A stretch of DNA of 64,000 bases from Acidobacteriota bacterium (GCA_036507075.1 DASXQR010000083.1:1-64000); one strand, 5' to 3'. Positions 4,836 through 61,615 are shown, counted from the stretch's first letter. The notes: generated by a model from the sequence alone, not told the origin. Made by a program: numbers and translations.

Positions 4836-4988
4836 GACCGATCCCAATTACGAATTCAGATCACCACAAAGGCATAGCCCGGCCGCAGGCCCCAACCAAA
4901 AGGCCGTCCATGTTCACGAGCCTGCAGTGGCAGAAACGCAACCAAAAAGAGAGCACGTCGCAGTCTAAAGGATTGAATTGTCGGTCTG

Positions 4989-5158
4989 GACGCTGAAAGC
5001 GTCAAAGAGAATAGCCCGGGGGCAAGCGCTTTTTTTGCGCGCCGCCCCCGGTGAGCTTCCCCCAACCAGCGCACCCTGAAAGGGTGCCAGCCTCGACCGG
5101 GGGCGGCGCGCAAAAAAAGCGCTTGCCCCCGGCTATTCTCTTTGACCGCTTCGCGGTC
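4989..5158. repeat. REP-like long palindrome: ~51-bp inverted arms with internal CTGAAAG hairpins
   Basis: 5001-5052 and 5096-5146 are reverse complements apart from one indel. Hairpins GACGCTGAAAGCGTC and GCACCCTGAAAGGGTGC. Confidence 0.9.
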
Positions 5159-5160
5159 TA

Positions 5161-5182
5161 GAGACGGCCCTCAGGCCGTCTC
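5161..5182. repeat. 22-bp REP-like hairpin GAGACGGCCCTCAGGCCGTCTC (copy 1 of 3)
   Basis: Identical copies at 33092-33113 and, inverted, at 33048-33069. Confidence 0.9.
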
Positions 5183-5264
5183 TCCACTTCCCAACGTGCA
5201 ATGAAAAATGTGGTTAAGAAAACCACATTCCACAGTCCAGTAACAAAAGGGCACAAAAAGGTCT

Positions 5265-8200: not shown

Positions 8201-8357
8201 AACCGGGTGCAATCTGAAAGGTTTGAAGAGACTGGCTGGGGGTGAAGGGTGGGATAGACGGGTGAGTGCAGCCTGTGGGAGAGCAAAGAAGTACCACAAA
8301 GACACAAAGGACACAGAGAACTGCGGCGTGTGTTCTTCCTGCTTCCGGTGTGAACAC
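5265..8357 (-). CDS. PVC-type heme-binding CxxCH protein (putative membrane-bound dehydrogenase: beta-propeller, HEAT repeats, cytochrome c)
   Basis: GFRVELFASEP...PVAMDFDEYGR, LEDTDGDGRPD, WFRPVN, HEAT-like helices, C-terminal CSKCH with distal SGMP. Confidence 0.9.
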   Translation of the reverse strand: MFTPEAGRTHAAVLCVLCVFVVLLCSPTGCTHPSIPPFTPSQSLQTFQIAPGFRVELFASEPLIASPVAMDFDEYGRIFVVEMPGYPLDTSGTGRVKLLEDTDGDGRPDSSTTFADKLVLPTGIIRWKKGVLVTDPPNVLYLEDTDGDNRADRREVILTGFAVTNPQHTVNTPLYGLDNWIYVAHESPARTILFPEKFGDRGGSIRFADQGGEQHGAPRPDAAQKSAQADDEEEDPARNVRFRPETHQVELLSGSSQFGHAFDAWGHHFTLNNSNHLRHEVIGPGYLQRNPNLIASRVMQDVSDHGNASPVFPITRNPQHQMLTDIGQFTSACSLTWYLGGLFGARYANVCFVAEPVHNLVHADVLAGSGTTFTARRLTEGSEFLSSTDSWFRPVNLYVGPEGALYLVDYYRQIIEHPEWMSREVNQSKDLYQGIDRGRIFRIVPDSPQPAAFPGKVRLGNASDAELIRQLGSSNIWMRRTVQRLLIDRRTPEVDALVQLFKASESPFTRLHALWTLEGLNKLPQELIESALGATEPGIRENAIRLAENHLHDFTALPEKLISMATDPDARVRLQLLCTLGNVDSPKARAARQQLLFAHVEDEWMQLAGLSGAGKDAYLLFERAVSVLASHETKARASFFRLVCADIAARASGNERHRVIEKIAANIRQGTGWWRSAGLEGLAEGSGDRRESTQAVAGVRADQDLLLSLFADPDRAVRGAALHLLQQIGLPKDPAAYAALTRAAEVAANPEGEAQLRADSIRLLRIEDVDKYQPLWTRLLSPHEPEEVQAAAAGALARVKDAGAVKLLIDKWKAMTAPVRMEAGDGFFRNSARLELLVKALKQGSIQPWTLSERHRRRLIMNPDPVVRETVRDLLRQAVSDREKVLQKYKPSLEEQGDVSNGAQVFRKNCSKCHQINGSGGKFGPDLNPVRSHAPEILLTDILIPGKAIAQNYEVYVIELQNGGLVDGTIAAQTPTAITLRHEDGREEVVLRKNIKEARASAVSGMPGDLEKQIDVRQMADLLAFLRGRK

Positions 8358-10390: not shown

Positions 10391-10446
10391 CATAGAGACG
10401 CGGTATGCCGTGTCAGAGCTCAGACGCGGCATGCTACGTCTCTATG
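10391..10446. repeat. GTAG-type REP-like doublet hairpin
   Basis: CATAGAGACGCGGTATGCCGTGTCAGAGCTCAGACGCGGCATGCTACGTCTCTATG, homologous to 63139-63189 plus 63394-63412. Confidence 0.8.
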
Positions 10447-10484
10447 GTCACCGATCCACTAAAACCGAGTGTTAACTAACTGGC

Positions 10485-11537: not shown

Positions 11538-11544
11538 GGCGGCT

Positions 11545-11743
<199 letters not shown>

Positions 11744-11767
11744 ACTTGACGTCTGCTAACCAGGGAT

Positions 11768-12769
11768 ATGCCGCCAGCGTTACTTAAGGTCACGAATCTA
11801 AAAAAATACTTCCGCTCCGCCGCCGGCTTGTTCGGAAAGAACACTCGTGTTGTCAAGGCAGTGGATGATGTCAGTCTGGAAGTTTTCCCCAGTGAAACAC
11901 TGGGGCTGGTGGGAGAGTCGGGTTGCGGCAAATCCACACTGGGCCGCTGCATCCTGAGACTAATCGAACCGACCGAGGGTAAGGTTGAATTCGATGGTCA
12001 AGATCTGCTGGCACTTGACTCTTCACATTTGAGGCGCAAACGCCGCGACATGCAGATCATTTTCCAGGATCCGTATTCTTCTCTTAATCCCAGAATGCGA
12101 ATCGGCACTGCCGTCGAAGAACCGTTGATTATTCATAAGCTGGCACAGAAGCCGCAGCGCAGGCGAATAATCTCGGATCTGCTGGAGCTGGTTGGGCTCC
12201 AGCCTCAGGACGCGTCGCGCTATCCCCACGAATTCAGCGGCGGCCAGCGCCAGCGGATCGGTATTGCGCGCGCACTGGCTTCCAATCCAAAGTTTATCGT
12301 GGCCGATGAGCCGGTCTCTTCGCTTGACGTTTCCATTCAAGCGCAGATTGTCAACCTGCTGGGGGAGCTGCAAAAGACATTTCAGCTTGCGTTTCTTTTC
12401 ATATCGCACGGCCTGCCGGTGATCCGCCACATCTGCCACCGGGTGTCCGTGATGTATCTGGGTAAGATCGTAGAGGAAGCTCCCACGGCCGAACTTTTTG
12501 AGAATCCCCTGCACCCCTACACAAAACTGCTGCTGGCCGCTGTACCGGAGCCGGATCCGGATGCGCGCAAGGAGGTCGCCAGCCGGGAAGCAGGCCAGGA
12601 GGCCCTGGATATTCCCAGCGCCTCGAATCCGCCGCCCGGTTGCCGATTCCACACGCGCTGTCCCGAAGTCATGGATAAATGCCGCCAATGGGAGCCTGAG
12701 CTGGTGGAACTCCGCCCCGGACACAAAGTCGCCTGCTTCCTGCATCATGACACAGTCAAAAAAGCGTGA
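11768..12769 (+). CDS. Oligopeptide/dipeptide ABC transporter ATP-binding subunit (DppF/OppF-like)
   Basis: [30 protein letters not shown] and CRFHTRC. Confidence 0.95.
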
Positions 12770-12779
12770 ACCGCCAAAA

Positions 12780-13320
12780 ACTGAACCGCCAAGAACGCCA
12801 AGAGCGGCAAGCCATAAAAATAATTTCGTTGTTTTGACTCTGTGTCAGTTATGTGATCGGAGGAGGTCAAGAATGACCCCTGATGACATGGCGCGGGAGA
12901 TCGTCGACTCGGCGATAAAAGTGCACAGAGCGCTGGGACCAGGTCTATTGGAATCTGCGTACCAGTCATGTCTTGCTTACGAGTTGCGTAGACGAGGTTA
13001 TCGAGTCGACTGTGAGGTGCCGGTTCCATTGGAGTACGATGGGTCAAAGATCGACGTGGCTTACCGGTTGGATTTGCTGGTTGAGCAGTCTGTGATCGTG
13101 GAAATTAAAGCGTGTGAAGGGATCCTTCCGATTCATTTGGCGCAGGTCTTGACATATCTTAAGCTGAGAAAACTCACACTTGGGTTCATACTCAACTTCA
13201 ATGTGAAACTGCTAAAGCAAGGTATTAAGCGGGTGGTATCCAAGCATCAGAATAGCAACTGCTTGCAGGATGGTAACAACGAAGATTAACCCAAAACCTT
13301 GGCGTTCTTGGCGGTTCAGT
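12780..13320. mobile_element. Putative mini-element: GxxExxY gene bounded by perfect 23-bp inverted repeats
   Basis: ACTGAACCGCCAAGAACGCCAAG (12780-12802) is the exact reverse complement of 13298-13320. The cassette fills the gap between two convergent stop codons. Mobility is inferred. Confidence 0.6.
12873..13289 (+). CDS. GxxExxY family protein (PD-(D/E)XK nuclease superfamily), 138 aa
   Basis: GGAGGAGG RBS before ATG 12873. Motifs VHRALGPGLLESAY, RLDLLVE, IVEIK, AQVLTYLK and GFILNF. Confidence 0.95.
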   Translation: MTPDDMAREIVDSAIKVHRALGPGLLESAYQSCLAYELRRRGYRVDCEVPVPLEYDGSKIDVAYRLDLLVEQSVIVEIKACEGILPIHLAQVLTYLKLRKLTLGFILNFNVKLLKQGIKRVVSKHQNSNCLQDGNNED

Positions 13321-13321
13321 C

Positions 13322-14566
13322 TTATTCGTACCGCAGCGCCTCGATGGGGTCGAGTTTTGCGGCCTTGGCGGCGGGCCAGATACCGAAGAACAAACCCACA
13401 CTCACCGATCCCAGGAAGCCGAATGCGATTGCCCAGGCAGGAACGACGGCGGGCAGGTTGGGCATCAACCGATTGATGGCAAACGCCAGCAACATTCCAA
13501 ACACAATCCCCAGCAGGCCCCCGGCGCCGGTCAGCGCCATCGCTTCAGTTAGAAACTGCAACACGATGTCAATGCGGCGGGCGCCGATCGCCTTGCGGAT
13601 TCCGATCTCCCTGGTCCGCTCGGTTACCGATACCAGCATGATGTTCATCACGCCCACTCCTCCTACCATAAAAGCCACCGAAGAAATTGCCACCATCACG
13701 GCAAGCACGGCAAAGGTGATCTGGTCGAATCTTTCAATGATGCTCTGGGCGGTGCCGATTCCAAAGTTATCCGGCTGGTTGTGTTTGACATGACGGCGGC
13801 GCCGAAGCAGTTCAGTGATCTGATCCAAGGCTTTGTCGAGTTGGCCTTCCCTAGCCCGTGCTGCGATGAAATGGTCATCCGCGTTGGGGTAGATCTTCTT
13901 GAACGTCCGGTAAGGAATAGAAATATAGTTGTCCTCGCTGTCATCGCCAAAGGCGCCCGCTTTGTGCTTTTCCTCCACCCCGATAACCCGGAAATTCTTT
14001 CCGTCAACCGTGATTTCCTTTTCAAGCGCACTCAGGTTGGGAAACAGTGCGTCCTTGACGTTGGCGCCAATCACGGCCACCTCGGTTGCATGCTCGTTTT
14101 CAGCGGCGGAAAAATAACGGCCATCCTCCAGAGATACATTGCCCACCATCTCCCACTCGGAGAAACCGCCCCGCAATCCAGTCGTTTGTGCTTCCCGACC
14201 GCGGTATTTGACCGCCGGTGGCGGGAACTTCTCCAGTCCCGCCGAGACATGCTCCACGGCCGGACACAGATCACGAATCGCTTCGGCGTCCTCCACTGTG
14301 AGCGGCTTGCGCTGGCGCACTTCGGGAGGCATGCGCCCCATCTGAAAAAGCGGGAATCGATGAATGTAGATGTTCCGGGTGCCGAACTCTTCCACCGAGC
14401 TGATCACGCTGTGGCGGAATCCGTTCAGCACGGAAGCCACGCCGATGATGATGAACACGCCGATGAACACGCCCAGAATGGTAAGAAAGGTGCGAAACTT
14501 GTGCTGGCGCAGCGTGTCGAGCGCCAGCAGCACGTTTTCCTTGAGGGTTACAAATCTCAGTCGCAT
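13322..14566 (-). CDS. ABC transporter permease, MacB/FtsX family
   Basis: RTFLTILGVFIGV, GGVGVMNIMLVSVTERTREIGIRKAIGA and DPIEALRYE. Confidence 0.95.
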   Translation of the reverse strand: MRLRFVTLKENVLLALDTLRQHKFRTFLTILGVFIGVFIIIGVASVLNGFRHSVISSVEEFGTRNIYIHRFPLFQMGRMPPEVRQRKPLTVEDAEAIRDLCPAVEHVSAGLEKFPPPAVKYRGREAQTTGLRGGFSEWEMVGNVSLEDGRYFSAAENEHATEVAVIGANVKDALFPNLSALEKEITVDGKNFRVIGVEEKHKAGAFGDDSEDNYISIPYRTFKKIYPNADDHFIAARAREGQLDKALDQITELLRRRRHVKHNQPDNFGIGTAQSIIERFDQITFAVLAVMVAISSVAFMVGGVGVMNIMLVSVTERTREIGIRKAIGARRIDIVLQFLTEAMALTGAGGLLGIVFGMLLAFAINRLMPNLPAVVPAWAIAFGFLGSVSVGLFFGIWPAAKAAKLDPIEALRYE

Positions 14567-15929: not shown

Positions 15930-16018
15930 ACTGGGGTCAGGTCTTCAGAATTCATTTTTTGGCCGTCGGACTCAAGCAAATGCAACCAAAAAATGAATTC
16001 TGAAGACCTGACCCCAGT
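15930..16018. repeat. Perfect 33-bp inverted repeat (GGGGTCAGGTCTT type) with a 23-nt loop, inside the operon
   Basis: 15930-15962 is the exact reverse complement of 15986-16018. Confidence 0.95.
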
Positions 16019-18217: not shown

Positions 18218-18624
18218 TAACGTGAGACTCCTGCACGGCTACATACGAATATCGCTGTGAAAATGTTTCAAGTTACAGCGCGTAGGCTTCCCGGGATTAA
18301 GCTAAATACAAGAGTCTCTAATGAAGGCAAAAAAGTCAAGGTTAACTGGCCTGAACGACGTGCCCACTCACAGAGAACGTGTGAAAAAATCGACGCCACC
18401 GGGCTTGTCCCAGTGGTGAGCACGATTCTTCACTAGAAAGCAGACCGCACCCATTTTTGGATGCAGTTTTTTCTTGTTCGGTGCGATGCAGGACCGAAGT
18501 GTTAATCGCGGAATTGCCGGGTGTTGCCGGCGTGTGAGCTAAAGGAGGGACGGAACAAACGTATCAGATTAAGAATGAGTGACTTACCGAGGTTAGTGAG
18601 GTGCGTTCGACGAGGAAAAGGCGG

Positions 18625-18686
18625 AACCGCGAAGGCGCGAGGGCGCAAATGATTTTAGCTTCGCGCTTTCGCGCCTTCGCGTTGAA
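18625..18686. repeat. ACCRC-type 8-nt-period palindrome (CGCGAAGG units)
   Basis: AACCGCGAAGGCGCGAGGGCGC ... TTCGCGCTTTCGCGCCTTCGCGTTGAA. Confidence 0.8.
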
Positions 18687-18691
18687 TTCTT

Positions 18692-19591
18692 TTATCTATG
18701 CGGCACCTCTTCCAGCCTGCTTCTGGCCTCTTCTGCAAATTCACTGTTGCGATCCAGGCCTGCGACAATCCGGTATAGTCTTGCGGCCTCATCTGGATCG
18801 TCATTTTTTTCATATACTTCGGCCATGTAAAAGTAGGCTGGCTGGTAGCCCGGGCTGAGGCGGAGCGTTTTTTCGAAGTTCACCAGAGCATCTTCATACA
18901 CGCCCCGGTCGGCCTGCAGATTTGCCAGAATGAAGAACCCTTCCGGATCATCCGGCTTCAGCCCGACATACTTCTGAAACTGAGCCGTTGCCCGCTGCAG
19001 CAGGCCGTACTGGGCCAGCGTCAATCCCAGGTTGTACCGGGCATCCGCGTTTTCGGGCTCATCGATGACTTTCTGATACAGCCGAAGGAGCTCCTCGGAA
19101 ACAATCGTTTCGGAATGATCGAGCCGGTCGTCAAAGGGGCTGGCGCCCGTCAATGCCATCAACCACTTCCGATGCCGGTCGGCGAACTGGACTCCCGGTT
19201 CAACACCCTGATCTATCCAGATTTTCAATTCCTCGGAAAGGTCTTCCAGCCGTTCCTTTGACTCGGCCTGCTCATACAGCTTCATCAAGTTCCAGTACTG
19301 GTCGCTGCCTTCCTCTGCCAGCGGCAAGGCGGTCTCTAACGCCTCGACAGCCGACGCGGTTTCGCCCGCGTCCATGAAGTTCTGATAGCGCTCAAGATTT
19401 TTCTGCACCAGTTGCTGTTCTACTGCGCGCAGCTTTTGGCTGATCTCATCTGCCTGATGGCCGGGTTCCGCCCCGCGAAGCGCCTTGATGTATTCAAGGC
19501 GTGCAAAACCAAGCTGTCCGTCGGCGGTGTAATCGTCAGCCCGGGCAATAATGCGATCAATTTCTTCAGGACTCAAATTCTTAAAGAACAT
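18692..19591 (-). CDS. Tetratricopeptide repeat protein
   Basis: C-terminal TPR consensus (ARYNLGLTL, GFFILANL, AYFYMAEVY). Confidence 0.85.
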   Translation of the reverse strand: MFFKNLSPEEIDRIIARADDYTADGQLGFARLEYIKALRGAEPGHQADEISQKLRAVEQQLVQKNLERYQNFMDAGETASAVEALETALPLAEEGSDQYWNLMKLYEQAESKERLEDLSEELKIWIDQGVEPGVQFADRHRKWLMALTGASPFDDRLDHSETIVSEELLRLYQKVIDEPENADARYNLGLTLAQYGLLQRATAQFQKYVGLKPDDPEGFFILANLQADRGVYEDALVNFEKTLRLSPGYQPAYFYMAEVYEKNDDPDEAARLYRIVAGLDRNSEFAEEARSRLEEVPHR

Positions 19592-19640
19592 ATCTTTGAA
19601 TCCAACTTAGCACCGTTGGCAAGTTTAGGCTAGCCAGCCT

Positions 19641-19795
19641 CAAATTCGGATTTCGGAATGCGGAATGCGGAATAAGAGCTGTCTGTCGTCCGTGGTCCGT
19701 GGTCCATTGTTTGCTAACCGATCACGTGGCCATGCACAACTGACCACGGACAACGGACAATTATTCCGCATTCCGCATTCCGAAATCCGAATTTG
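19641..19795. repeat. Nested MITE-like element, copy 1 of 3
   Basis: CAAAT...(GGAATGC)n arms, inner (TCCGTGG)/(GACAACG) arms, core TAACCGATCACGTGGCCATGCACAACTG. Confidence 0.9.
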
Positions 19796-21513: not shown

Positions 21514-21515
21514 AT

Positions 21516-21685
21516 GTGGTCCGTGGTCCGTTGCCCGTTGTCAGTGTGGTCAGTGGCGATCTCAACGTCTGAAAGTCGAATGTCGAAAGTCGAAGGTCGC
21601 CGGTTGGTTTTTGACTTTCGACTTTCGACTTTCTAACTTTCGACCTTCCCAAGTCAACTGACAACGGACTACTGACAACGGACAG
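21516..21685. repeat. Nested heptamer palindrome (outer GTCCGTT/GACAACG, inner TCGAAAG/CTTTCGA)
   Basis: Two inverted heptamer families, one nested inside the other, between the convergent moaC and skp. Confidence 0.85.
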
Positions 21686-21690
21686 TCTTT

Positions 21691-24112: not shown

Positions 24113-24140
24113 TGTTCACAGACAGGGAGATTTTAGCAAA

Positions 24141-24214
24141 AGCCGGAAGGCAGAAGGCAGAAAGCGGAAGCCGGAAGGCAGAAGGCAGAAAGCAGAAAGT
24201 GGAAGGCGGAAGGC
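24141..24214. repeat. Solo heptamer array (GGCAGAA)n
   Basis: About ten degenerate GGCAGAA/GGCGGAA units. Confidence 0.85.
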
Positions 24215-24262
24215 CGTAGTCAGAGTCATTCAGGTAAAAGGCTGGCTTGGTGTCTTGGTGGT

Positions 24263-26535: not shown

Positions 26536-26621
26536 GGGAAGGGGGGAGGAAGGGTTATGAGGGGAATGAAGGGTTGTGAAGGGGAATGAAGGGGAATGAA
26601 GGGGAATTAGGGGAAGAAAGG
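26536..26621. repeat. Purine-rich ~10-bp tandem repeat (GAAGGGGAAT)n in a divergent promoter region
   Basis: GAGGGGAATGAAGGGTTGTGAAGGGGAATGAAGGGGAATGAAGGGGAATTAGGGGAAG. Confidence 0.85.
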
Positions 26622-26710
26622 AACGTGAAGTTTAGTGGCTTGGTGTGGTCAAAGAGAACTGAACCACCAAGACACCAAGCCCGCGGTGGACTATAATTGA
26701 CCGGAAATCG

Positions 26711-39208: not shown

Positions 39209-39253
39209 GAGAAATTCACCGCGAAGGCGCGAAAGCACGAAGCAATAAAACTG

Positions 39254-39973: not shown

Positions 39974-40068
39974 CAAATGTGGATTTCGGAATGCGGAATG
40001 TGGAATCGGGCGTAAACGGGCCCGGCTTCGAAGGATCTGACTTGGATATATTCCGCATTCCGCATTTG
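39974..40068. repeat. (GGAATGC)n palindromic element, GCTTCGAAG-core subtype, copy 2 of 2
   Basis: CAAATGTGGATTTCGGAATGCGGAATGTGG ... GGCTTCGAAG ... ATATTCCGCATTCCGCATTTG. Confidence 0.85.
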
Positions 40069-40129: not shown

Positions 40130-43096
40130 ATGCGGTGTGGTCTAAAGAAAAACCACTTCAGCTTTGTATTCTGCGTCTTTTTGCTGTTTGTTGCCTTGGA
40201 CACCTCTCAGGCGCAGAACAATGCCGGTTCCGATGCCGGTTCGCGCGCGCTGGATGACGCTTACTCAAAGAAGATTCGCGAGTACACCACAGAGCTTTTT
40301 TTTCTGACTGAGCTCGTGGATCACCTTCCGGCATCGGACAAAGTTCCTTCCCCGGAAAAGATACTGGGTTACGTCATCGGGACCCCGAACAAGCTCACCT
40401 ACACCAGGGACATGTACCGCTACTACCGGGAACTGGAGAAGGCCTCTCCGCGGGTGCGTGTATTTACCGCCCCCGAGCGCAGCGAGGACGGCAAGGAACA
40501 ACTGCTGGTAATCGTGGGCGATCAAGAAAACATCGCCAGGCTGGATCAGTACAAAGAGATTACGCGAAGGCTTGCCGATCCGCGGGGCTTGAGCGAGACA
40601 GACGCCAGGCGTCTGGTATCGGAAGGGAAGCCTTTCTACTGGGCTTCGGGCTCCATCCATTCTCCAGAAACCGGATCGCCCGAAATGTTGATGGAGCTGG
40701 CGTACCGGCTGGCCGTCGACGAAAGTCCCTTCATACAGGCGATTCGAAAGAATGTGATTGTCATGATTACGCCCACTCTGGAAGTGGATGGACGAGATCG
40801 ATCCGTGGACCTTTACAACTATCGCAAGGCCAATCCGAAGAACGCGCCGCCTTCTCTTGTCTACTGGGGGAAATACGTGGCGCACGATAACAATCGCGAC
40901 GGTCTGGGAATGGCGCTGGCCCTGACGCGCAACATGATGAAGACCTTCCTTGAATATCACCCGACCATTCTCCACGACCTGCACGAGTCGGTGCCTTTCC
41001 TTTACACTTCCACCGGCACGGGCCCGTACAACGCATGGCTCGATCCACTGGTGATTGACGAATGGCACCTGCTCGCCTACCACGAAATCGAAGAGATGAC
41101 CAAGCGCGGAGTGCCGGGTGTTTGGACGCATGGCTTTTACGACGGATGGGCGCCCAACTATATGTTTTACGTCGCCAATGGGCACAACGCCATCGGCCGT
41201 TTCTACGAGACGTTTGGCGGCCGCGGAGCCGACACTGAGGAGCGCAGCGTGGGAGCCCAGGCACAGCGCGCCTGGTTCCGGCCCAATCCTCCTCTTTCCC
41301 GTGTAAAGTGGTCGATCCGCAACAACATCAATCTGCAGCAGTCGGCCATTTTGCTGGCAATGAGCTTTGTTGCCGACAACAAAGACCGCTTCCTCAATAA
41401 TTTTTATCTTAAGAGTGCGCGTTCCGTGGCGAAAGCAAAGAATGAGGGACCGGCGGCCTACGTTATACCCGGCGACGTGGCGCGGCCGGTGGAAGCCGCC
41501 GACATGGTAAACCTGCTTCGCCTGATGGGCGTCGAAGTGCACACCGCATCTCAGGAGTTTGTGGTCAAGGATCAGAAGTTTCCATCGGGCTCCTACATCA
41601 TCCGCATGGATCAGCCCTATTCGCGCATGGCCGACATGCTGCTGGACACGCAGTTTTACAACGTCAACGATCCGCGGCCCTACGACGACACAGGTTGGAC
41701 GCTGGGCGCGCTGCGAAACGTCAAAACCGTGCGTGTTACCGACGCCGGCGTCCTGACCGCGCCGATGAAACTGATCGCATCCGACGTCAAGGTCCCCGGA
41801 AAGATCCATGGTTCTGCTTCCACGGCCGGCTATGTCATCAACCACAATACGGAAAACCCGTTGGCGACTCTCCGCTTCAAACTGAAGGACATAAAGATTT
41901 CGGCTGCCGAAGAGGCGTTCAAGATCGGAGATCAGTCCTTCAATGCAGGTTCCTTCATCATCCGCACCGAGGGGAATCCATCCGACCTGCGTTCGCGTCT
42001 GGAGCAGGTTGTGCGTGAGCTGGGCCTGGCCGCGCACGCGCTCGACAAACTCCCGTCGGTGAAGAGTCACGACCTGTCGGCCCCCCGCATCGCCATACTG
42101 CACACCTGGACAAACACCCAGAATGAGGGGTGGTTTCGCATCGAGTTTGATCGACTGCAGATTCCCTACTCCTACATTTCCGACCAGGTTGTCCGAAATA
42201 CTCCCGACCTGCGAAGCAAGTATGACGTGATAATTTTCCCGCCGCTGGGCGGGTCCGCTCAGAGCATCGTGAACGGAATTCCGAAACGAGGTGAAGCCAT
42301 TCCCTGGAAGGCCTCCGACCTGACGCCGAATTTCGGCTCCTCGCCGGACCAGACCGACGACATGCGGGGCGGGATGGGAATAGCGGGAGTGGCCAACCTG
42401 CAGAAGTTTATCGAAGAGGGCGGGCTGTTTGTCACCATCACCAACATGGCTCGAGTTCCAATCGACTACGGGATCACTTCGGGCGTCAGCGTGGATGAAG
42501 CAAGACAGTTGCAGGCACGTGGTTCCGTTTTTAACGCTACCGTTTCTGACCGGGGAAGCCCGATCGCTTACGGTTATGACGAGAAGCTTTCCATTTATTT
42601 TGACCAGGCGCCGCTGTTGCGCGTCAGCATTCTTCCCGGGGGTTTTGGAGGTGGAGGGCAGCAACCTGACTCGGGCCAGCGGGCGTCGGGCCGCGGCGGA
42701 CTCAATGATCCTGACATCCCGCAAGGCAGGCCGCAAGCGGGCGCCCAACCGGCTCCGCAGCGAGGCCGCCCGGGCGAAGAACAGATCACCGACGAGCAGC
42801 GCCAGGCATTCAGTGCTTTCATCCCGCCCCCGGAGATGAGACCGCGTGTAGTGCTGCGATTTAACTCGGATGAAAAGAATCTGCTGCTCAGCGGAATGCT
42901 GGCAGGCGGGTCGGAACTGGCCAACAGACCGGCCGTGGTGGATGTTCCGGTGGGGCGAGGGCATGTGGTGATGTTTGCCACCAACCCAATGTGGCGTCAC
43001 CAGACCCAGGGGGAATTCTTCCTGCTGTTCAACGCGGCCCTGAATTATGACAATTTGGGAGCAGGCCGCGCCGCGCCGCCGGAACGGACGCAATGA
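40130..43096 (+). CDS. Secreted M14-family zinc carboxypeptidase-like protein
   Basis: Signal peptide, IHSPE (HxxE), DNNRD, HDLHE and PYDDTGWTL. Confidence 0.85.
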   Translation: MRCGLKKNHFSFVFCVFLLFVALDTSQAQNNAGSDAGSRALDDAYSKKIREYTTELFFLTELVDHLPASDKVPSPEKILGYVIGTPNKLTYTRDMYRYYRELEKASPRVRVFTAPERSEDGKEQLLVIVGDQENIARLDQYKEITRRLADPRGLSETDARRLVSEGKPFYWASGSIHSPETGSPEMLMELAYRLAVDESPFIQAIRKNVIVMITPTLEVDGRDRSVDLYNYRKANPKNAPPSLVYWGKYVAHDNNRDGLGMALALTRNMMKTFLEYHPTILHDLHESVPFLYTSTGTGPYNAWLDPLVIDEWHLLAYHEIEEMTKRGVPGVWTHGFYDGWAPNYMFYVANGHNAIGRFYETFGGRGADTEERSVGAQAQRAWFRPNPPLSRVKWSIRNNINLQQSAILLAMSFVADNKDRFLNNFYLKSARSVAKAKNEGPAAYVIPGDVARPVEAADMVNLLRLMGVEVHTASQEFVVKDQKFPSGSYIIRMDQPYSRMADMLLDTQFYNVNDPRPYDDTGWTLGALRNVKTVRVTDAGVLTAPMKLIASDVKVPGKIHGSASTAGYVINHNTENPLATLRFKLKDIKISAAEEAFKIGDQSFNAGSFIIRTEGNPSDLRSRLEQVVRELGLAAHALDKLPSVKSHDLSAPRIAILHTWTNTQNEGWFRIEFDRLQIPYSYISDQVVRNTPDLRSKYDVIIFPPLGGSAQSIVNGIPKRGEAIPWKASDLTPNFGSSPDQTDDMRGGMGIAGVANLQKFIEEGGLFVTITNMARVPIDYGITSGVSVDEARQLQARGSVFNATVSDRGSPIAYGYDEKLSIYFDQAPLLRVSILPGGFGGGGQQPDSGQRASGRGGLNDPDIPQGRPQAGAQPAPQRGRPGEEQITDEQRQAFSAFIPPPEMRPRVVLRFNSDEKNLLLSGMLAGGSELANRPAVVDVPVGRGHVVMFATNPMWRHQTQGEFFLLFNAALNYDNLGAGRAAPPERTQ

Positions 43097-44742
43097 ATCT
43101 GGTCAATTTCATTTTCGAGGCCGCCTCGAAGCTGAAGCGATGGCCACATCCGGCCGTCCTTTATGGTTCCTCCCGGTACAGTTATCAGCATCTGCTTTCG
43201 CGGGTTCGTCAATCGGCATCGGTAATTCGGCAGTGCGGCGTGCTTCGCGGGGACCGCGTGGCGATTGTATGCTGCGACTGTCCTGATTTCATTTGTGGCT
43301 TTCTTGGAAGCATTGCGGCGCGTTCGATTGCCGTGCCCATCAGCACCATGCTTCCCGCCGGCGAGCTGGAATTCATACTCGCGGACTGCGGCGCAAAAGC
43401 AGTCCTGCTCTCTCCCGATCAACTGGAGAAGGTGTCGCCGGTACTTGGCAATCTTCCCGATCTGAAAACCGTATTCATGACCTGCAGGTTGCGTGCGAAC
43501 CAAATCCCAGACCCAAACATTCCACCGCCTGAGATTACTAGGCATTCAAACGCTCCCTTCGTGCCTTCGTGGCTTCGTGGCGTCTCTCAGACCGTGATTG
43601 ATTTCGACCAGGCCATTTCGGAATCGCCACCGGCCGCCATCGACGATGCGCCGGACGACGAGCTTGCCTTCATTCTTTACACGTCGGGCAGCACCGGGAA
43701 GCCTAAAGGGGCAATGCATCTGCATCGAAACTTACCATGGACCGTCAACACTTATTGCCGCCACATCTTGAACGTTCAGCCTGAGGACCGGTTGTTTTCC
43801 TCTTCCAGACTTTTCTTTGCCTATGGTCTGGGCAACAGCCTGTCTTTTCCGCTCAGTTCCGGCGCCGGCGCGATTCTTTGCAGCGAGCGGCCGACTCCTC
43901 CTGTTATTTCCGATGTATTCAGACGTCACAGGCCGACGATCTTCTTTGGCGTGCCGGCCGTCTTTCGGGCGCTGATTGAGTATCGGGAAGCGGGAAATCC
44001 CCTGGACACGGAATCGATTGTTTTCTGCGTTTCTGCCGGCGAAAAGCTTCCGAAACGCGTTTACCACGACTGGAAGGCGATCACCGGTCTGGAAATTCTC
44101 GACGGGATCGGCTCGACCGAAATGCTGCACATGTTCATGTCCAACAGCCGCGATTCGGTAACACCGGGCTCCAGCGGCAAGCCGCTTCCCTGTTACGAAG
44201 CAAAACTGCTGGATCCTGCGGGCAATGAAATACCGGGAACCGGGACGGGAGATCTTCTGATCAAAGGAGGCAGCGCCAGCCCGGGCTATTGGCGCAATCC
44301 TGAAAAGACGGCTTCCACGATGCTTGGAGAATGGATGCGCACGGGGGACATCTACCGCCGCGACAGTGAGGGAAATTACTGGTTTGACGGGCGGAGTGAC
44401 GATCTGTTCAAAGTCAAGGGCCTGTGGATCTCTCCTGTTGAAGTTGAAGAGGCGCTGCTGAATGCTCCAGAGGTGAGCGAAGCGGCTGTCGTGGCGGCTT
44501 ACGATCCTGATGGGTTAAGCCGGGTGGTCGCTTTTGTGGTGTTGAGAAATGATCATCTAAAGGACGCTGCCGCCGTTGAGAGAATAAAATCGGCGGCATG
44601 CCAGCGCCTGCAGCCATACAAATGTCCGTCGGAGATTTACTTCCTGGACAAACTCCCGCGCACAGCCACAGGCAAACTGCAGCGGTTCAAACTCAGGGAA
44701 GCTCGTCAAAATGCGGATTTCGGAATGCAGAATGCGGAATAA
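43093..44742 (+). CDS. Benzoate-CoA ligase family AMP-binding enzyme
   Basis: YTSGSTGKPKG, LFFAYGLGN, SAGE, DGIGSTEMLH, TGD and PRTATGKLQRF. Confidence 0.92.
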   Translation: MNLVNFIFEAASKLKRWPHPAVLYGSSRYSYQHLLSRVRQSASVIRQCGVLRGDRVAIVCCDCPDFICGFLGSIAARSIAVPISTMLPAGELEFILADCGAKAVLLSPDQLEKVSPVLGNLPDLKTVFMTCRLRANQIPDPNIPPPEITRHSNAPFVPSWLRGVSQTVIDFDQAISESPPAAIDDAPDDELAFILYTSGSTGKPKGAMHLHRNLPWTVNTYCRHILNVQPEDRLFSSSRLFFAYGLGNSLSFPLSSGAGAILCSERPTPPVISDVFRRHRPTIFFGVPAVFRALIEYREAGNPLDTESIVFCVSAGEKLPKRVYHDWKAITGLEILDGIGSTEMLHMFMSNSRDSVTPGSSGKPLPCYEAKLLDPAGNEIPGTGTGDLLIKGGSASPGYWRNPEKTASTMLGEWMRTGDIYRRDSEGNYWFDGRSDDLFKVKGLWISPVEVEEALLNAPEVSEAAVVAAYDPDGLSRVVAFVVLRNDHLKDAAAVERIKSAACQRLQPYKCPSEIYFLDKLPRTATGKLQRFKLREARQNADFGMQNAE

Positions 44743-44897
44743 AAGCTGTCTTTGGTCAGGTGTCAGTTGTCCGTTGTCCATTGTTCGTGGTCCATTGTTC
44801 CTTAACCGATCACGTAGCCATGCTCAACTGACAACGGACAACTGACAACGGACAATTATTCCGCATTCCGCATTCCGCATTCCACATTCCGCATTTG
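44707..44897. repeat. Nested MITE-like element, copy 3 of 3 (supplies the last codons and stop of the CoA ligase)
   Basis: Same arms, with core TAACCGATCACGTAGCCATGCTCAACTG. Confidence 0.9.
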
Positions 44898-45565: not shown

Positions 45566-46657
45566 TCATTGGTCATAACTCGTCTTTGTCTTCTTCGTGT
45601 CTTTGTGGTGAAACCGATCCAATTCGGGCGACAGGATTTCACGCGCTAAGATTTCACTAAACCGAATGCGCCCAGCTTCATCGACGTGGTGACTGTCCGA
45701 AAACTCTGAATCGGGTACGCTGCTCCGCAAATCAATGAAAGCGCATCCGTACTTCTGGTTTAGATCGCGCATGTAGACGCCAAAGGACTCCTCAATTTGT
45801 GGTGTGTACAAAGCCCGGTGCGAACTCGACAGTGGAGCACCGACCAGCAAGGCTCGAATGTTTCGGTCGCGGCACAAACGCAGCAGATCGCCAAGGAAAA
45901 GCGCCGGGCCACCGCCAATCTCATAGTCTTGAAGCCATTTTCTATAACCCCGCAGATTCGTTCTTGTCGCCTCCAGCGCGGCCATGTCGTGGGGATGTGA
46001 AGGTGCAATCCAGTCGGATCGCATCCACGGGAGGATTACCCTCTGGCTGGGTGAAGGCGATCCACTAACGCACTCGACAAGCCATTCGCGGAAGTGGCTG
46101 CGATGGCGGTACCATGGAACCAGACGCGATGAAGCAAATCGTGAGAGCGCGCCGGACGAAATCACGTCCGGCAGGAAAGGCGCGATGCCGCGCCACGTGA
46201 GTTCCCTTGTCAGATGAATTGCAAGCCAACGGTTTTTCCGGCAGATGTATTCGGGAGTTATCTCGATTACGACGATCCGCGGCGTGCCGGCGGAAACCAG
46301 ATGGGAAAGAATTAACGCAGAGGTGACCAGATCACCTCCTGCAACACTGGCGTTAAACGCCTGCACCGATGCGTCGCCGGTAAGGCTGCGCAGGTGTCCC
46401 TGCACTCGGCGATCGTCGATGCTGCAACCAAAACGAGAACTGCCAAGGCAGACGATCTCCGCCGGACGTTGCGGCGCCTTGAATGCTTCGACTACCGTGG
46501 CCGCGTGCGGAAAGCGCACATCGAGCGGGCACCAGTCGATCAGAATCGCCCCAATCACCTCCAGGATGCAAATTGCAAAAAAAGCCCAGACAGTGGCGTT
46601 CCGGGCGTCTCGGCAATGACGCCGCAGTTTATCTTCCCGGTGTTTTGCGTTTTCCAT
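45566..46657 (-). CDS. SGNH/DltD-like periplasmic partner of the MBOAT acyltransferase
   Basis: N-terminal TM, CLGSSR (GSS), FIDL and SDSHH (DxxH). Abuts the MBOAT gene. Confidence 0.7.
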   Translation of the reverse strand: MENAKHREDKLRRHCRDARNATVWAFFAICILEVIGAILIDWCPLDVRFPHAATVVEAFKAPQRPAEIVCLGSSRFGCSIDDRRVQGHLRSLTGDASVQAFNASVAGGDLVTSALILSHLVSAGTPRIVVIEITPEYICRKNRWLAIHLTRELTWRGIAPFLPDVISSGALSRFASSRLVPWYRHRSHFREWLVECVSGSPSPSQRVILPWMRSDWIAPSHPHDMAALEATRTNLRGYRKWLQDYEIGGGPALFLGDLLRLCRDRNIRALLVGAPLSSSHRALYTPQIEESFGVYMRDLNQKYGCAFIDLRSSVPDSEFSDSHHVDEAGRIRFSEILAREILSPELDRFHHKDTKKTKTSYDQ

Positions 46658-48620: not shown

Positions 48621-48713
48621 TGGGTTTGTCACTCTTAGGCCGCTGCAAGCGGCCTGCAGAGACGCGACCTGCAAGCCGGACGGAAAGGTTTCGGGCACTT
48701 CGCCGGCATGCCA
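48621..48713 (-). pseudogene. Displaced 3'-end remnant of the erythromycin-esterase-family gene; direct repeat of 52188-52280
   Basis: 79/93 nt identical without gaps (manual alignment). Translates as WHAGEVPETFPSGL versus WKSGEVPETFPSGM*. Confidence 0.85.
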
Positions 48714-48859
48714 TTTGAGAAAGAATGGTTCAAAATTATAATGAATGCTACCGTCAGGAAGATTCTTTACCTGGGCGCGCGGAAACTAGAGCTAAATACA
48801 GCTTTCGCGTTCTACGCGCCTTCGCGGTGAATTTTTCGCACCTTCCGGGGGAATGAACT

Positions 48860-52177: not shown

Positions 52178-52235
52178 GCAGCGTCTGTGGGTTTGCCACT
52201 ATTAGGCCGCTTACAGCGGCCTGGAGAGACGCGAC

Positions 52236-57432: not shown

Positions 57433-57436
57433 ATGC

Positions 57437-57827
57437 TCTTCGTGTCCTTTGTGTCTTTGTGGTGGCAATAAATGCACCACGAAGGCACAGAGGCACCGAC
57501 AAGCCGTCACTTCCAGGGGTTCTGCACGCGAAGCACGGAGCCACATCCCGCAAAGGCGTGGTGGAAACCATGTAAGTTTGTGCGTTCCAAGCGAAATTCG
57601 CCGCCGAGCCATTATGAGGTTCGCCACGCTGGAGCAGTTGAAACCAACGGGCGATGGAAAAACGTAATGCCAGGGTCCGAGCCGACTCACCTGGTACCCA
57701 CCACGCCCTCGCGGGACGTGGCTCTGTGCTTCGCGTGCAGGCCCGGTCGATCAGCGAGCGCCAGGCTTCAATTTTCAGTCCTCGCCTTTTGCGTTATTCT
57801 TAGCGCTCTTGGCGTTCTTGGCGGTTA
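57437..57827. repeat. Composite repeat cluster: ACCRC-type hairpin, 49-bp imperfect IR, and a solo GxxExxY-type arm
   Basis: 57437-57496 CTTTGTG/CACGAAG arms; 57522-57570 versus 57692-57740 inverted; 57804-57826 is the reverse complement of 12784-12806. Confidence 0.85.
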
Positions 57828-57867
57828 AGATTTTGGGAGTCCAATTTTCGTAAAAGAGAGAGATATT

Positions 57868-59228: not shown

Positions 59229-60272
59229 ATGACCTGGGAACAGCGATGGCACCCGTTGCGCGAGGAATGGATTATTGTCGCCGCGCATCGGCAGAACCGT
59301 CCTTGGATCGGCAAGACAGTCGAGCATAAGGAGGCGGCCTTGCCCGATTACCTGCCCGATTGCTACCTTTGTCCCGGCAATACCCGCATCAGTGGCCAGC
59401 GCAACGCGCATTACACAAGCACGTTTGTTTTTGACAACGATCACCCGTGCGTAGGCCTTGATGCACCCCAGGATGTCGTCACGCCAAACGGGATTTACCG
59501 CAGCGGGCCCGCGACCGGCATTGCGCGGGTAGTTTGCTACAGCCCGAAGCACAATCTGGCGCTCGCCGAGCTGGAAATCTGTGAGATTGCGGAACTGCTG
59601 GGCGTCTGGCGGGAGCAATACATTGATCTGGGGAGCCACGATGAGATCCGCCACGTGCTGATCTTTGAGAACAAGGGCGAGGTTGTCGGTGTCTCCAACC
59701 CGCATCCGCACTGCCAGATTTACGCCACCAATTTTGTCTTCAAAACGATCGAGACGGAAGCGCGGGTTTCTCAAAAGCATTTGGCCGAAACAGGGCGGAT
59801 TCTTTTCCAGGACATCCTCAAAGCAGAACGCGACGAGGGGAAGCGGATCATCTCTGAGAATGAATCGGCGATTGCTTTCCTGCCTTATTTCGCGCGCTAC
59901 GCCTACGAGGCGTTTGTAGCGGCCAAACATACGCACCCGAGTCTTGCGACACTCTCCGAAGCCGAGGTGCGCGACTTGGCCGCAGTGCTCAAATGCCTGC
60001 TGGTAAAGTTTGACAATCTGTGGCGCATGCCATTCCCTTACGTCATGACGCTGCATCAGGCGCCGACCGATGGCGGCGACTACCGCGGTTTTCATTTTCA
60101 CATCGAGTTTCATCCGCCTCTGCGGCAGCCGAATCTGCTGAAATACCTGGCGGGTCCTGAGATCGGCGGCGGCAATTTCCTGAGTGATACCGCGCCCGAG
60201 GAAAAGGCCGCCGAATTGCGCGCCCAATCGGATATTCACTACAGGCAGGCAAGGCAGGAGGACAAGCCATGA
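59229..60272 (+). CDS. galT: Galactose-1-phosphate uridylyltransferase family
   Basis: HRQNRPW, CYLCPGN, FENKG...[13 protein letters not shown] and PEEKAAELR. Confidence 0.92.
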
Positions 60273-61312
60273 GACGGACCTCGCGCGCACCTGCTGTGTA
60301 TGAAGTGCAGGTATTGCTTGCGCCGCTGCGTCGTTTGCACGAGAAGATCAGAGACGCGGTAGTCGCGGCCTGCGAGCGGGCGGCACTTGAAGATCTGGCG
60401 CGTGTTGAGGATGACTGCTCAGAAGGCGACACCATTTATGCCGTCGATCGCATCAGTGAGGATTTACTGATTGAATTATTCGAGAGCGAGATTGCCCCGG
60501 TTGCCCCGCTTGTTCTAATCGGCGAAGGCCTGGCGGGCGGCAAGGTGGCCCTGCCTCGCGGGACGGTCGAATCGAATGCGCTTTGGCGCGTTATAGTTGA
60601 TCCGATAGACGGCACGCGGGGTTTGATGTATCAGAAACGAAGCGCCTGGGTTTTGACGGGTGTGGCGCCGAATCGCGGAAGCGAAACCAATCTGCAGGAC
60701 ATCGAGCTCGCCCTGCAGACTGAGATTCCGCTCGTCAAACAGCACCTGTGCGATGCGCTTTGGGCCATCCGCGGCAGGGGAGCCAATGCCGAGCGGTACA
60801 ACCGTCTAAGCGGTGAACGCCGGCTGCTGCGACTGCAGCCTTCACAAGCGCGCAGCATTCGCCATGGTTTTGCCGGCCTGGCGCGTTTTTTCCCCGGCGC
60901 TCGCGAAGAACTGGCGGCAATTGACGAGGAGATCGTGCGCGGCGCGCTCGGTGATGCAACGCAGGGCAAGGCGCATTGTTTTGAGGATCAATACCTGTCC
61001 AGCGCCGGACAGATTTACGAACTGATGGCAGGTCATGATCGTTTTGTGGCCGATTTGCGTCCGCTGATGGAGCCATTGCTCAGGCGGCGCGGGCAGGCGC
61101 TGGGCATCTGCTGCCACCCTTACGACCTCTGTACCGAGCTGATCGCACGCGAAACAGGCGTTATCGTCACCGATGAGAATGGCAATGCTCTGCGCGCGCC
61201 GCTCAATGCGGAAGCCGATCTCGCGTGGGCGGGTTATGCAAACAAGTACATTCGAGAAGAAATCGAACCTTTGCTCCAGCGTGCTCTTAAAAGTCGCGGC
61301 CTCACTTTGTGA
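60269..61312 (+). CDS. Inositol monophosphatase (FIG) superfamily protein
   Basis: [11 protein letters not shown] and HPYD. ATGA overlap with galT. Confidence 0.8.
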
Positions 61313-61375
61313 TCTTTGTGTTACAAGTCGGCAACTTCTCGCTTTCTTTAACAGAGTTTTGTCTGGCGCCTACAA

Positions 61376-61475
61376 TCCTTCACCGCAGAGGCGCAGAGGA
61401 CGCAGAGAATGCGCAGAGTTTCGTTTGCATGTCTCTGCGTAACCTCTGCGTTCTCTGCGCCTCTGCGGTGAAGGA
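61376..61475. repeat. ACCRC-type palindrome (CGCAGAGG units)
   Basis: TCCTTCACCGCAGAGGCGCAGAGGACGCAGAG ... CTCTGCGTTCTCTGCGCCTCTGCGGTGAAGGA. Confidence 0.92.
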
Positions 61476-61615
61476 ATGTGACTTCCCACATCAGCATATG
61501 ACGATCAGGCTGCCAAGCGGGAACATCCTATTTTTGGTTGCGGCTTTGCCGGGCCGCGTCTTTGTGGTGAAAATTCATAGGTAATCCAAGTACCAGCCCC
61601 CGGGTGTGCAATCGC

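Follow-up and report, generated by a model that had tools for sequence, protein, structure and literature searches.

What are the short, ACC-tagged periodic repeats that lie scattered between the genes of a 64,000-nucleotide (nt) stretch of DNA from an Acidobacteriota bacterium (GCA_036507075.1 DASXQR010000083.1:1-64000, hereafter the window), and what ties them to the one gene of the GxxExxY protein family encoded there? An earlier interpretation made from this DNA alone (hereafter the sequence-only reading) had grouped about 16 loci into a single dispersed family of palindromes with a shared ACCRC terminus and arms of 8-9-nt units, and had proposed that they are non-autonomous derivatives of a GxxExxY cassette. 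Our data show that the window holds one full cassette, i.e., a GxxExxY gene between two such arms, together with about 12 gene-less hairpins or half-ends, and that arms of the same architecture accompany GxxExxY genes across phyla. They suggest that the repeats are the ends of a selfish or formerly mobile cassette and of its copies.

The dispersed ACC-tagged periodic arms are genuine and occur beyond chance. The loose motif ACCRCNRAG is found 28 times in the window, as compared with 8.36 +/- 3.01 times in 100 dinucleotide shuffles, none of which got to 28. A stricter definition, in which an arm consists of ACC, the six-base unit RCNNAG, and a second unit with at most one mismatch lying 7-10 nt further on, yields 17 arms, whereas 200 order-2 Markov simulations averaged 0.43 and never exceeded 3, so the grammar of ACC-RC plus AAG/GAG put forward in the sequence-only reading is real. 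With a unit distance of 7-11 nt, which was used for the intergenic count, all 17 strict arms fall within intergenic DNA. This DNA amounts to 33 pieces and 7,583 bases in sum, the ends having been trimmed on six mechanical open reading frames (ORFs) that overran arms or adjacent repeats. A simulated background trained on intergenic sequence contained a mean of 0.05 strict arms and a maximum of 2 over 500 runs, and the loose motif also exceeds its intergenic background (21 occurrences versus 1.03 +/- 0.98 expected), so the sequence-only reading withstands the background comparison that it had itself named as a possible refutation. The five box variants named earlier (CGCCAAG, CGCGAAG, CACAAAG, CACCAAG, and CGCAGAG) were found at the positions assigned to them. 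Other short-period repeats abound in the window, which could invite the view that chance or low sequence complexity in a GC-rich genome produced the pattern as an artefact; the counts given above refute it, as does an independent model from other genomes that picks out the same sites (see below), and we give this explanation practically no weight.

The sole GxxExxY gene of the window (12873-13289, plus strand) encodes a 138-residue protein that matches TIGR04256 (E = 1.8e-41, 141.1 bits with a cut-off of 35) and PF13366, i.e., PDDEXK_3 (E = 1.8e-40, 138.4 bits with a cut-off of 22), and it is bracketed by arms. The left arm (12767-12813, plus strand) has its ACC at 12785, followed by three CGCCAAG-type boxes, and the right arm (13296-13324, minus strand) has its ACC at 13315 and two CGCCAAG boxes; over 26 nt, they agree at 96%. 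When the window was searched by tblastn with E up to 100, no second GxxExxY copy or gene remnant was found, including in the gene-less loops, so that the mapping of variants to paralogous GxxExxY genes, as envisaged in the sequence-only reading, is inapplicable within the window.

The link between these arms and the gene-less ones gains support from a covariance model that uses sequence only and was built from 95 arms flanking GxxExxY genes elsewhere, with no window sequence among them. Run on the window with filters off, this model returned 19 arms with E <= 0.054, and 16 of those had E < 0.01; its E-values are rough, the calibration having been shortened. The cassette's own arms score 0.0002 (left) and 0.00044 (right), and 15 of the 16 loci listed earlier were recovered, the remaining one (4861) being non-significant (E = 1.7). 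The best hit is a gene-less solo arm with CGCCAAG boxes (57797-57833, minus strand; E = 6.3e-7), which equals the left arm of the cassette over the first 22 nt from its ACC (at 57825), spacers included. The term palindrome, in turn, suits about half of the loci and not the six that are solo arms.

The same ends surround the gene in other genomes. A profile scan of species-representative genomes, with a query alignment of 20 family members, provided 80 loci from among at least 600 matching relatives; these loci (cited below by L numbers) represent 14 named phyla, do not include the source genome, and comprise two from archaeal metagenome-assembled genomes (MAGs), for which mis-binning is possible. 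Local tblastn gave 87 hits in the loci, and the 84 that span at least 90 residues were kept. Of these genes, 37 have strict arms on both sides, 21 on one, and 26 on neither; the last group shows relaxed forms of the grammar, for instance a terminus of AAACGC or AACGC (in Nostocales and some others) and boxes like CACGGGG, CACAATG, CGCAACG, and CACAGTG. When the upstream flank was locally aligned with the reverse-complemented downstream flank, a test that is blind to the grammar, the score was 28 or higher for 67 of the 84 genes that allowed scoring (the window's own gene and 83 from the loci, L063 being left out because of a run of N).

Within 1 kb of GxxExxY, the 80 loci contain 152 strict arms in 192,730 bases (0.79 per kb), whereas beyond 1 kb they contain 39 in 970,527 bases (0.040 per kb). 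This 20-fold difference in density indicates that in most genomes the arms belong to the gene. Gene-less copies are in excess in the source genome, where the window's 15 gene-less arms correspond to 0.24 per kb, and likewise at L012 and L071. The outer-to-outer length of the 65 plus/minus arm pairs (window and loci) is bimodal: 31 pairs measure less than 250 nt, mostly 50-100 nt, and 34 measure at least 400 nt, of which 32 enclose GxxExxY. Two pairs found in the strict-arm search enclose no GxxExxY gene, namely L012:4004-4523 and a 1.5-kb pair in L064. In a broader scan for small ORFs flanked by inverted repeats, 28 of the 32 candidates were GxxExxY. Collectively, the densities, the two length classes, and the shared sequence of the 57825 arm bear out the connection to a GxxExxY cassette. 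A search for recent multi-copy cassettes on plasmids matched just eight plasmid records, all at less than 60% identity. At L012, 15 strict arms lie in 7.4 kb, often as two adjacent hairpins, and another small ORF (about 76-110 residues; 3990-4530, minus strand) sits in a layout of hairpin, gene, and right arm with ACC-type ends; this ORF had no Pfam or NCBIfam match.

The anatomy of an end was derived from 208 arms of the window and the loci. Read inward, an end is random beyond -11, A-rich at -10 to -8, and T-rich at -4 to -2, with A or C at -1. Its terminus, T(T/G)(A/C)ACC, has TTA in 33 arms, TGA in 32, TTC in 30, and TTT in 27. ACC is thus conserved, as had been noticed, but it is not the outermost conserved position, because conservation runs ~10 nt further out. 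The CRCNNAG box is present three times in 127 arms, twice in 61, and four times in 20. The first period is 8 nt in 86 arms and 9 nt in 101, in line with the 8-9 nt described at the outset, and the second is mostly 9 nt. This three-unit layout, with its 8-9-nt periods and conserved outer flank, is a fixed architecture and not a free microsatellite.

The two arms of an element agree in their boxes. Along C-R-C-N-N-A-G, arm-to-arm identity is 0.98, 0.92, 0.98, 0.70, 0.90, 0.93, and 0.99, as compared with 0.60 in the spacers and 0.84 in the outer flank. The first unit is identical in 33 of the 65 arm pairs versus 7.0 after shuffling (maximum of 16 in 10,000), and the R position agrees in 61 pairs where 35 are expected. 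Since the shuffle mixes genomes, lineage composition adds to this contrast; the window is free of that effect, and there the first unit matches in 4/4 arm pairs, which carry four different variants. The unit therefore varies among loci and agrees within an element, just as the sequence-only reading had it. Register makes no difference for the units (0.756 for unit mismatches in the same register versus 0.738 in a different one; a within-arm figure of 0.588 was left unused, being biased by the detection rule), whereas identical spacers make up 30% of the comparisons in the same register and 6% of those in a different one. Of the two origins suggested earlier for matching arms, recent co-generation is unlikely, because the spacers are just 60% alike while the boxes are kept; the contrast between box and spacer conservation points instead to constraint on the boxes or to their homogenisation, the second of those origins. 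On our reading, the ends would be mirror copies of old date, with drifting spacers and with boxes that are kept to a single variant.

These figures bear on the proposal, in line with the co-generation of the sequence-only reading, that the arms are written de novo, i.e., that templated or slipping synthesis adds short units to both ends in a telomere-like manner, with the machinery setting the period and the terminus and the local template setting the unit. Stuttering synthesis would account for spacer lengths that vary by 1-3 nt, for a single variant in all boxes of an element whatever their register, and for termini that are at times tandemly duplicated (in the window, the terminus TGAACCGCCAA of the cassette's left arm is duplicated 15 nt upstream, at 12767-12796; in L074, the right end is triple). 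It is at odds with spacers that differ within as well as between arms next to boxes that are kept, which is the mark of old copies under constraint, and with a unit number fixed near three. Orthologous Nostocales cassettes, moreover, retain four boxes while their A/G positions have drifted, and the window's elements come with no polymerase, primase, or reverse transcriptase. We consider de novo writing highly improbable.

Box conservation could also be expected of operator-like arrays, in which a host regulator or nucleoid protein would bind CRCNNAG boxes repeated in tandem on opposite strands and so regulate the GxxExxY gene. Five of the seven box positions are 90-99% alike (with 92% at R and 70% at N1) against 60% in the spacers, the units are equally alike in any register, and solo arms exist. 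There is also a precedent in Geobacter metallireducens, where paired sites of four tandem octanucleotides or five heptanucleotides on opposite strands are predicted to be regulator sites (PMC2700814). However, one host regulator cannot account for five variants in 64 kb, each consistent within its element, and the operator model leaves unexplained why the same architecture recurs across the 14 phyla and travels with a gene clade; in addition, the conserved ACC, the A/T-rich flank, and the bimodal length resemble the ends of an element. An operator function is quite improbable in our view. Mini-hairpin motifs of the GCGAAGC type, CsrA-type GGA sites, and Shine-Dalgarno mimicry were considered separately, and each fits some variants only.

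In the protein, residues E27, D67, E77, and K79 are invariant in an alignment (A1) of 20 sequences and correspond to the catalytic residues of the PD-(D/E)XK fold. An AlphaFold (AF2) model, with a mean predicted local distance difference test (pLDDT) score of 78.8, shows the element order alpha-alpha-beta-beta-beta-alpha-beta-alpha, and Foldseek against PDB returned weak matches to PD-(D/E)XK folds of a generic kind, including Cas4 SSO0001, AF1548, Bax1, Hjc, a splicing endonuclease, EndA-type enzymes, and XisH (best E of 0.03, TM of about 0.4); the protein sequence itself had no match in PDB at E <= 1. The family is vast: 7,999 of 8,000 scored candidates were significant relatives, many of them on metagenome contigs of roughly 1 kb, possibly because assemblies break at the ends. 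Homologue tails such as HKDTKSTK, QDAKIAK, AWRAWRSWRF, and NRKDAKDAKK are translated boxes; such tails of annotated homologues come from read-through into the arms.

Does the box variant follow the protein? On a tree of 79 proteins, which is poorly resolved (11 of 76 branches supported), the variant requires 26 changes versus 36.7 when shuffled (minimum of 30), and the phylum label requires 21 versus 34.7. A weakly supported clade with GAG or GGG boxes comprises Planctomycetota, Acidobacteriota, Gemmatimonadota, Thermodesulfobacteriota, and one archaeal MAG. We also analyzed the association between residues and boxes in 54 labelled GxxExxY proteins (numbered as in the window's protein) and found that residue 94 is S with 11 GAG and 2 AAG elements and T with 5 GAG and 36 AAG elements (p = 2.8e-6; in permutations, the minimum p had its 5th percentile at about 1e-3). 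Residue 4 is D in 7/7 elements with C at N1 and E in 8/9 GCGAAG elements, and I at residue 122 accompanies CAC boxes; more generally, residue 4 (D, E, or N) follows the N1 base. These three residues could be specificity determinants or could mirror shared ancestry, and we treat them as leads, not results. Because variants go along with protein clades and with single residues, the variant may matter for recognition, a role that the sequence-only reading had reserved for period and terminus. Judging from these sequences, gene and ends appear to travel together, loosely.

Orthologous sites differ in the presence or absence of elements, i.e., there is turnover by gain, loss, or replacement. L055 and L074, both from Terriglobales, are syntenic at 82-85% identity. 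At their first site (A), L055 has a heptamer (GTCAGAA) hairpin, and L074 has an ACC hairpin, a GxxExxY gene, and a tandemly triplicated right end (L074:10375-10700). Each of the three copies takes in the cassette's final ~45 nt, the right arm, a 19-nt piece of flank, and the downstream gene's first 20 nt, and the TGAACCGCCAA duplication in the window is a smaller analogue of this arrangement. At their second site (B), L055 has the cassette and L074 a heptamer (ACTGAGA) hairpin. In Flavobacteria, one site holds an ACC hairpin in L040 and a plain terminator-like hairpin in L049, and at another site L049 has an extra CACATAG-type element.

Such replacements, one by a plain non-periodic hairpin and two between a heptamer hairpin and the cassette, imply that hairpins of different kinds are interchangeable, and they favor a reversed order of events. 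In this alternative, the hairpins came first, as intergenic structures of use to the host (transcript 3' ends, mRNA stabilisers, or processing stems), and GxxExxY is a lodger homing into or next to their loops. Gene-less hairpins would then be empty sites and not derivatives, and the parallel for processing would be the 23S rRNA intervening sequences cut by RNase III. The A-rich and then T-rich outer flanks would suit transcript ends, as would the T runs that follow the window arms at 38212, 48828, and 24262 and the placement of 8/12 window sites between tandem genes and 2/12 between convergent genes, as read from the gene map. Two other sites (8293 and 26636), however, lie between divergent gene starts, and a simple terminator and promoter scan of the whole window, which is blind to loops of more than 8 nt, gave counts equal to those of shuffles. 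The six solo arms are unable to form a stem. Arm mismatches compatible with G-U pairing are as common on the sense strand of the gene as on the antisense strand (82 versus 78), so a role at the RNA level is neither supported nor excluded. Layouts other than the simple cassette speak for hairpins that existed beforehand (hairpin-gene-hairpin in L005; hairpin-gene-right arm in L074 and, with a different small ORF, in L012), and so do four-helix-bundle (23S_rRNA_IVP) genes, which also lie within periodic inverted repeats at L040 and L079. Nevertheless, a general host feature would not be expected to be as rare away from the gene, and as concentrated beside it, as the arms are in the 80 loci. We regard the hairpins-first order as somewhat unlikely.

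The explanation that we favor, with a probability of roughly 0.55, is that the cassette is selfish or formerly mobile, that its nuclease recognises both ends, and that the gene-less hairpins are non-autonomous or decayed copies, in the manner of the repetitive extragenic palindromic (REP) doublets known as REPINs with their REP-associated tyrosine transposases (RAYTs), or of transposable elements of the miniature inverted-repeat type (MITEs). More specifically, the ACC-tagged periodic arms would be the terminal inverted repeats of a GxxExxY cassette made up of a small PD-(D/E)XK nuclease gene between two ends of about 40 nt, recognition of the two ends would fall to the encoded nuclease, and the gene-less forms would be copies that spread or persist in intergenic DNA. 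Each element would keep one variant since a single protein has to fit both of its ends and since these ends pair with each other, and variants would differ among elements because cassette lineages, each a gene with its ends, have become distinct and have passed from host to host. The data show the architecture, the association with the gene, the matching of arms, the enrichment of gene-less and half copies in the source genome, and the turnover at orthologous sites; that the cassette moves, that the GxxExxY protein cuts or binds, and that gene-less forms descend from cassettes, as opposed to the gene having lodged in hairpins that were already there, is what we infer.

Several observations weigh against this explanation. 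The six solo arms and the two inside-out hairpins of the window require extra rearrangements, and the window's single gene leaves the cognate genes of four of the five variants unseen. Among arms without a gene that lie over 1 kb away from GxxExxY, 14/35 share the variant of the local gene versus 5.9 expected, which speaks for the explanation, but two loci, L012 and L062, dominate this result. Variants switch often, the near-identical proteins of L021 and L044 carrying different ones, and an ancestry-aware covariation test had just two to three independent pairs on supported branches, which is too few. As to movement, the L055 and L074 cassettes, which occupy different sites, are 76.6% identical, i.e., less than their flanks, so that differential loss of old copies explains them no worse than movement does. 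Cassettes are also found at one site across genera or species (L024/L056/L075, L013/L020, and L008/L019, with L042 homologous to the first set), which means that they are often stable. No target-site duplication or clean empty site is readable at the four polymorphic sites, since the whole stop-to-start stretch differs at all four. To our knowledge, no member of the GxxExxY family is a transposase. The protein matched no family in PADLOC or PHROG, and a superfamily survey gives PF13366 as a family of unknown function with multiple transfers (PMC3424549).

How does the family compare with known systems? In the RAYT arrangement, a single protein gene is flanked by its repeats in inverted orientation, as GxxExxY is here. 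Confinement to intergenic DNA, which is characteristic of REPs and REPINs, was likewise found for all of the window's strict arms. RAYTs, however, are HUH/Y1 transposases of the IS200/IS605 type, whereas the flanked gene here belongs to PF13366 and has the PD-(D/E)XK fold, and the REP tag (GTAG or CGTC) is absent, the tag here being T(T/G)(A/C)ACC. Arms composed of three 8-9-nt boxes and the huge size of the GxxExxY family also set the present elements apart. Further likenesses to the REP superfamily (PMC3733652) are short intergenic palindromic repeats occurring singly or as doublets, an end tag, and several families per genome.

Like MITEs, the gene-less elements are small, lack an ORF, share terminal inverted repeats with a gene-bearing relative, and fall with it into two size classes; unlike in MITEs, no target-site duplication is readable, the gene-bearing form is without a known transposase, and half-elements are many. 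The 23S rRNA intervening sequences, with their PF05635/TIGR02436 ORF, similarly have a small ORF within a long stem, but the sites described here lie between protein genes in a window that has no rRNA, and the gene family is another one. Four-helix-bundle cassettes differ from GxxExxY ends in that their arms have a 7-nt period and no ACC tag. Integron cassettes with their attC sites are alike in having imperfect inverted repeats whose halves match while cassettes differ, short conserved termini, and adjacent small ORFs, and hairpin-gene-hairpin arrays do occur (L005). In the window, by contrast, the elements are scattered singly with no array, and no integron integrase was found among the 54 ORFs scanned there. 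The cores of attC sites are RYYYAAC/GTTRRRY; the termini here include TTCACC and TTTACC, which are without an AAC/GTT core.

Arrays of 7-8-nt units have been described in intergenic DNA of Cyanobacteria, Bacteroidetes, and others, among them the TAACTGA repeats (PMC4679880). These short tandemly repeated repetitive (STRR) sequences, the TAACTGA repeats, and the Geobacter sites resemble the present family in unit length, intergenic location, and, at times, placement on opposite strands. The accessible parts of those reports name no flanked gene, and the ACC family stands apart by its 8-9-nt period, the fixed arrangement of its three boxes, and its conserved terminus. No description of these ends was found in Rfam or the searchable literature, and literature text gave no match to six two-unit box sequence strings. 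In one paper that uses the name 'GxxExxY', it serves as an annotation label only.

Among small proteins of unknown function, GxxExxY (PF13366) ranks with the most abundant in environmental bacteria, and the conserved, phylum-spanning architecture of its ends provides it with a concrete and testable candidate substrate. The cassette model also accounts for a large share of the odd periodic hairpins in the intergenic DNA of the source genome. If the nuclease acts on its own ends, it would constitute a system like that of REPINs and RAYTs on a different enzyme fold. A broader possibility, to which we give less than even odds, is that undescribed selfish 'hairpin-loop cassettes' exist in many phyla and possibly in some archaea, each with a small gene, either GxxExxY between ACC ends with an 8-9-nt period or a four-helix-bundle gene between ends with a 7-nt period. 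Nuclease and variant would co-evolve as a recognition pair, and gene-less copies might seed much of the periodic intergenic hairpins, including STRR-type heptamers and rRNA intervening sequences.

The window itself is ~56% GC, and its genes, which suggest a chromosome of Acidobacteria-like kind, include TonB-type receptors (OMP_b-brl_4/CarboxypepD_reg), MacB/FtsX, queA, and a Mur ligase. It contains no tRNA genes; an Rfam 15 search at gathering thresholds gave 0 matches and no rRNA, a search by E-value below that threshold gave just look-alikes of eukaryotic miRNA precursors on long hairpins, and in eight other loci the gathering search had no match on arms. Besides the cassette's arm pair (12785/13315), four gene-less hairpins have a left arm followed by a right arm, with ACC positions at 18626/18690, 36207/36285, 38074/38212, and 61382/61469 and with DNA folds of -24.8 to -52.0 kcal/mol (z of -3.4 to -13.7). 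The first (18616-18695; CGCGAAG boxes; E = 0.054 and 2.3) folds at -24.8 kcal/mol (z = -3.4), lies directly 3' of a minus-strand TPR gene, and has a right arm that ends in AACGC in place of ACCGC. The second (36197-36295; E = 2.3e-6 and 1.5e-6; fold of -29.1, z = -7.4) has three CACAAAG/CACGAAG boxes per arm and stands between queA and a dipeptidase gene. In the third (38064-38222; E = 0.016 and 0.029; fold of -37.5, z = -6.1), CGCGAAG/CGCGAAAG boxes enclose an 89-nt loop, and a run of seven T follows. In the fourth (61372-61479; E = 9.6e-7 and 1.3e-6), each arm has four CGCAGAG boxes, and no other element of the set folds as stably (fold of -52.0, z = -13.7).

In two further hairpins, the termini face each other within the loop. 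One is short (26636-26681; CACCAAG boxes; E = 0.0041; fold of -11.2, z = -2.9) and consists of a right-arm fragment followed by a left arm. In the other (57433-57497; E = 4.9e-6 and 0.00061), a right arm with CACAAAG boxes (57437-57467) abuts a left arm with CACGAAG/CACAGAG boxes (57468-57497), and the pair folds as a hairpin at -18.2 (z = -4.8).

The solo arms, in addition to the one at 57825, number five. The arm at 8293 (8284-8319, plus strand; CACAAAG boxes; E = 1.1e-5) has no convincing partner and a fold z of +0.26. That at 24262 (24241-24272, minus strand; E = 0.0012) has CACCAAG boxes, and that at 39218 (39209-39245, plus strand; E = 0.0054), a left arm with CGCGAAG boxes, occupies a 45-nt intergenic gap. 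The arm at 45609 (45575-45618, minus strand; CACAAAG/CACGAAG boxes; E = 5.8e-6) overlaps the 3' end of a mechanical ORF (45566-46657). The arm at 48828 (48797-48838, minus strand; CGCGAAG boxes; E = 0.002) lies 30 nt upstream of a TonB-dependent receptor gene and is followed by a run of five T. A single-box arm (TTTTCACCACAAAG; 61546-61576, minus strand; E = 0.0033, the 61557 locus) is a marginal member and resembles 4860-4900, around the non-significant site, over about 40 nt.

Some termini double as stop codons of neighbouring genes. The upstream TGAACCGCCAA copy, through its TGA at 12767-12769, provides the stop codon of the upstream ABC ATPase gene; the TGA (24263-24265) in the TGAACC terminus of the solo arm at 24262 is the stop codon of ORF 24263-26512; and at the left end of L011, the TGA of a TGAACC terminus is likewise the stop of the neighbouring host gene. 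Stop triplets are also contained in the termini TTAACC, GGTGAA, and GGTAAA.

Other palindromes with periodic arms, mostly of 7-nt units and without the ACC tag, are located at 1506-1812, 3928-4098, 11538-11745, 19640-19793, 21514-21690, 24135-24214, 26538-26615, 27284-27410, 33945-34111, 39976-40066, and 44710-44895. Their units include GGAAGGC/GGCAGGA, AATGCGG...ATTCCGC, GTCCGTG...CAACGGA, and GAAAGTC...TTTCGAC; a 10-nt GAAGGGGAAT array is also among the window's repeats. Together with the ACC family, these palindromes fill a large share of the intergenic DNA of the window. Three of them (19640-19793, 33945-34111, and 44710-44895) are copies of a nested composite element with outer arms AATGCGG/ATTCCGC, inner arms GTCCGTG/CAACGGA, and a conserved non-periodic core (…TAACCGATCACGT.GCCATGC…). 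At L040:3200-3760 and L079:3070-3610, four-helix-bundle genes (TIGR02436, PF05635) lie between inverted repeats of heptamers (GATTTNN); these two loci are orthologous and thus count as one independent case. By analogy, this suggests that the heptamer hairpins of the window may relate to the four-helix-bundle family as the ACC hairpins do to GxxExxY.

The left arm at 57476 and the solo arm at 57825 have between them a different, 219-nt hairpin (57522-57740), whose 56-nt arms are 86% complementary and stand 107 nt apart; there is no second copy of it in the window, and it matched nothing in Rfam. Two ABC ATPase genes enclose a palindrome with heptamer arms whose loop contains an eleven-copy GAGAGTGG tandem array (11598-11688). 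Recurrent non-periodic intergenic palindromes are found at 5161-5185 and 33046-33116, at 10395-10460 and 63150-63190, at 48634-48668 and 52203-52235, at 4990-5145, and at 15931-16017. Examples are AGAGACGGCC.TCAGGCCGTCTCT, the GACGCGGCATGCCGCGTC type, and TTAGGCCGC....GCGGCC.G.AGAGACGCGAC, and two long, perfect-looking palindromes are present as well. Finally, CTTCGTGG is repeated 3.1 times at 43557-43581, inside the ORF of an AMP-binding enzyme (43093-44742), where the arm model has a weak hit (E = 0.11) that may represent arm-like sequence within coding DNA.

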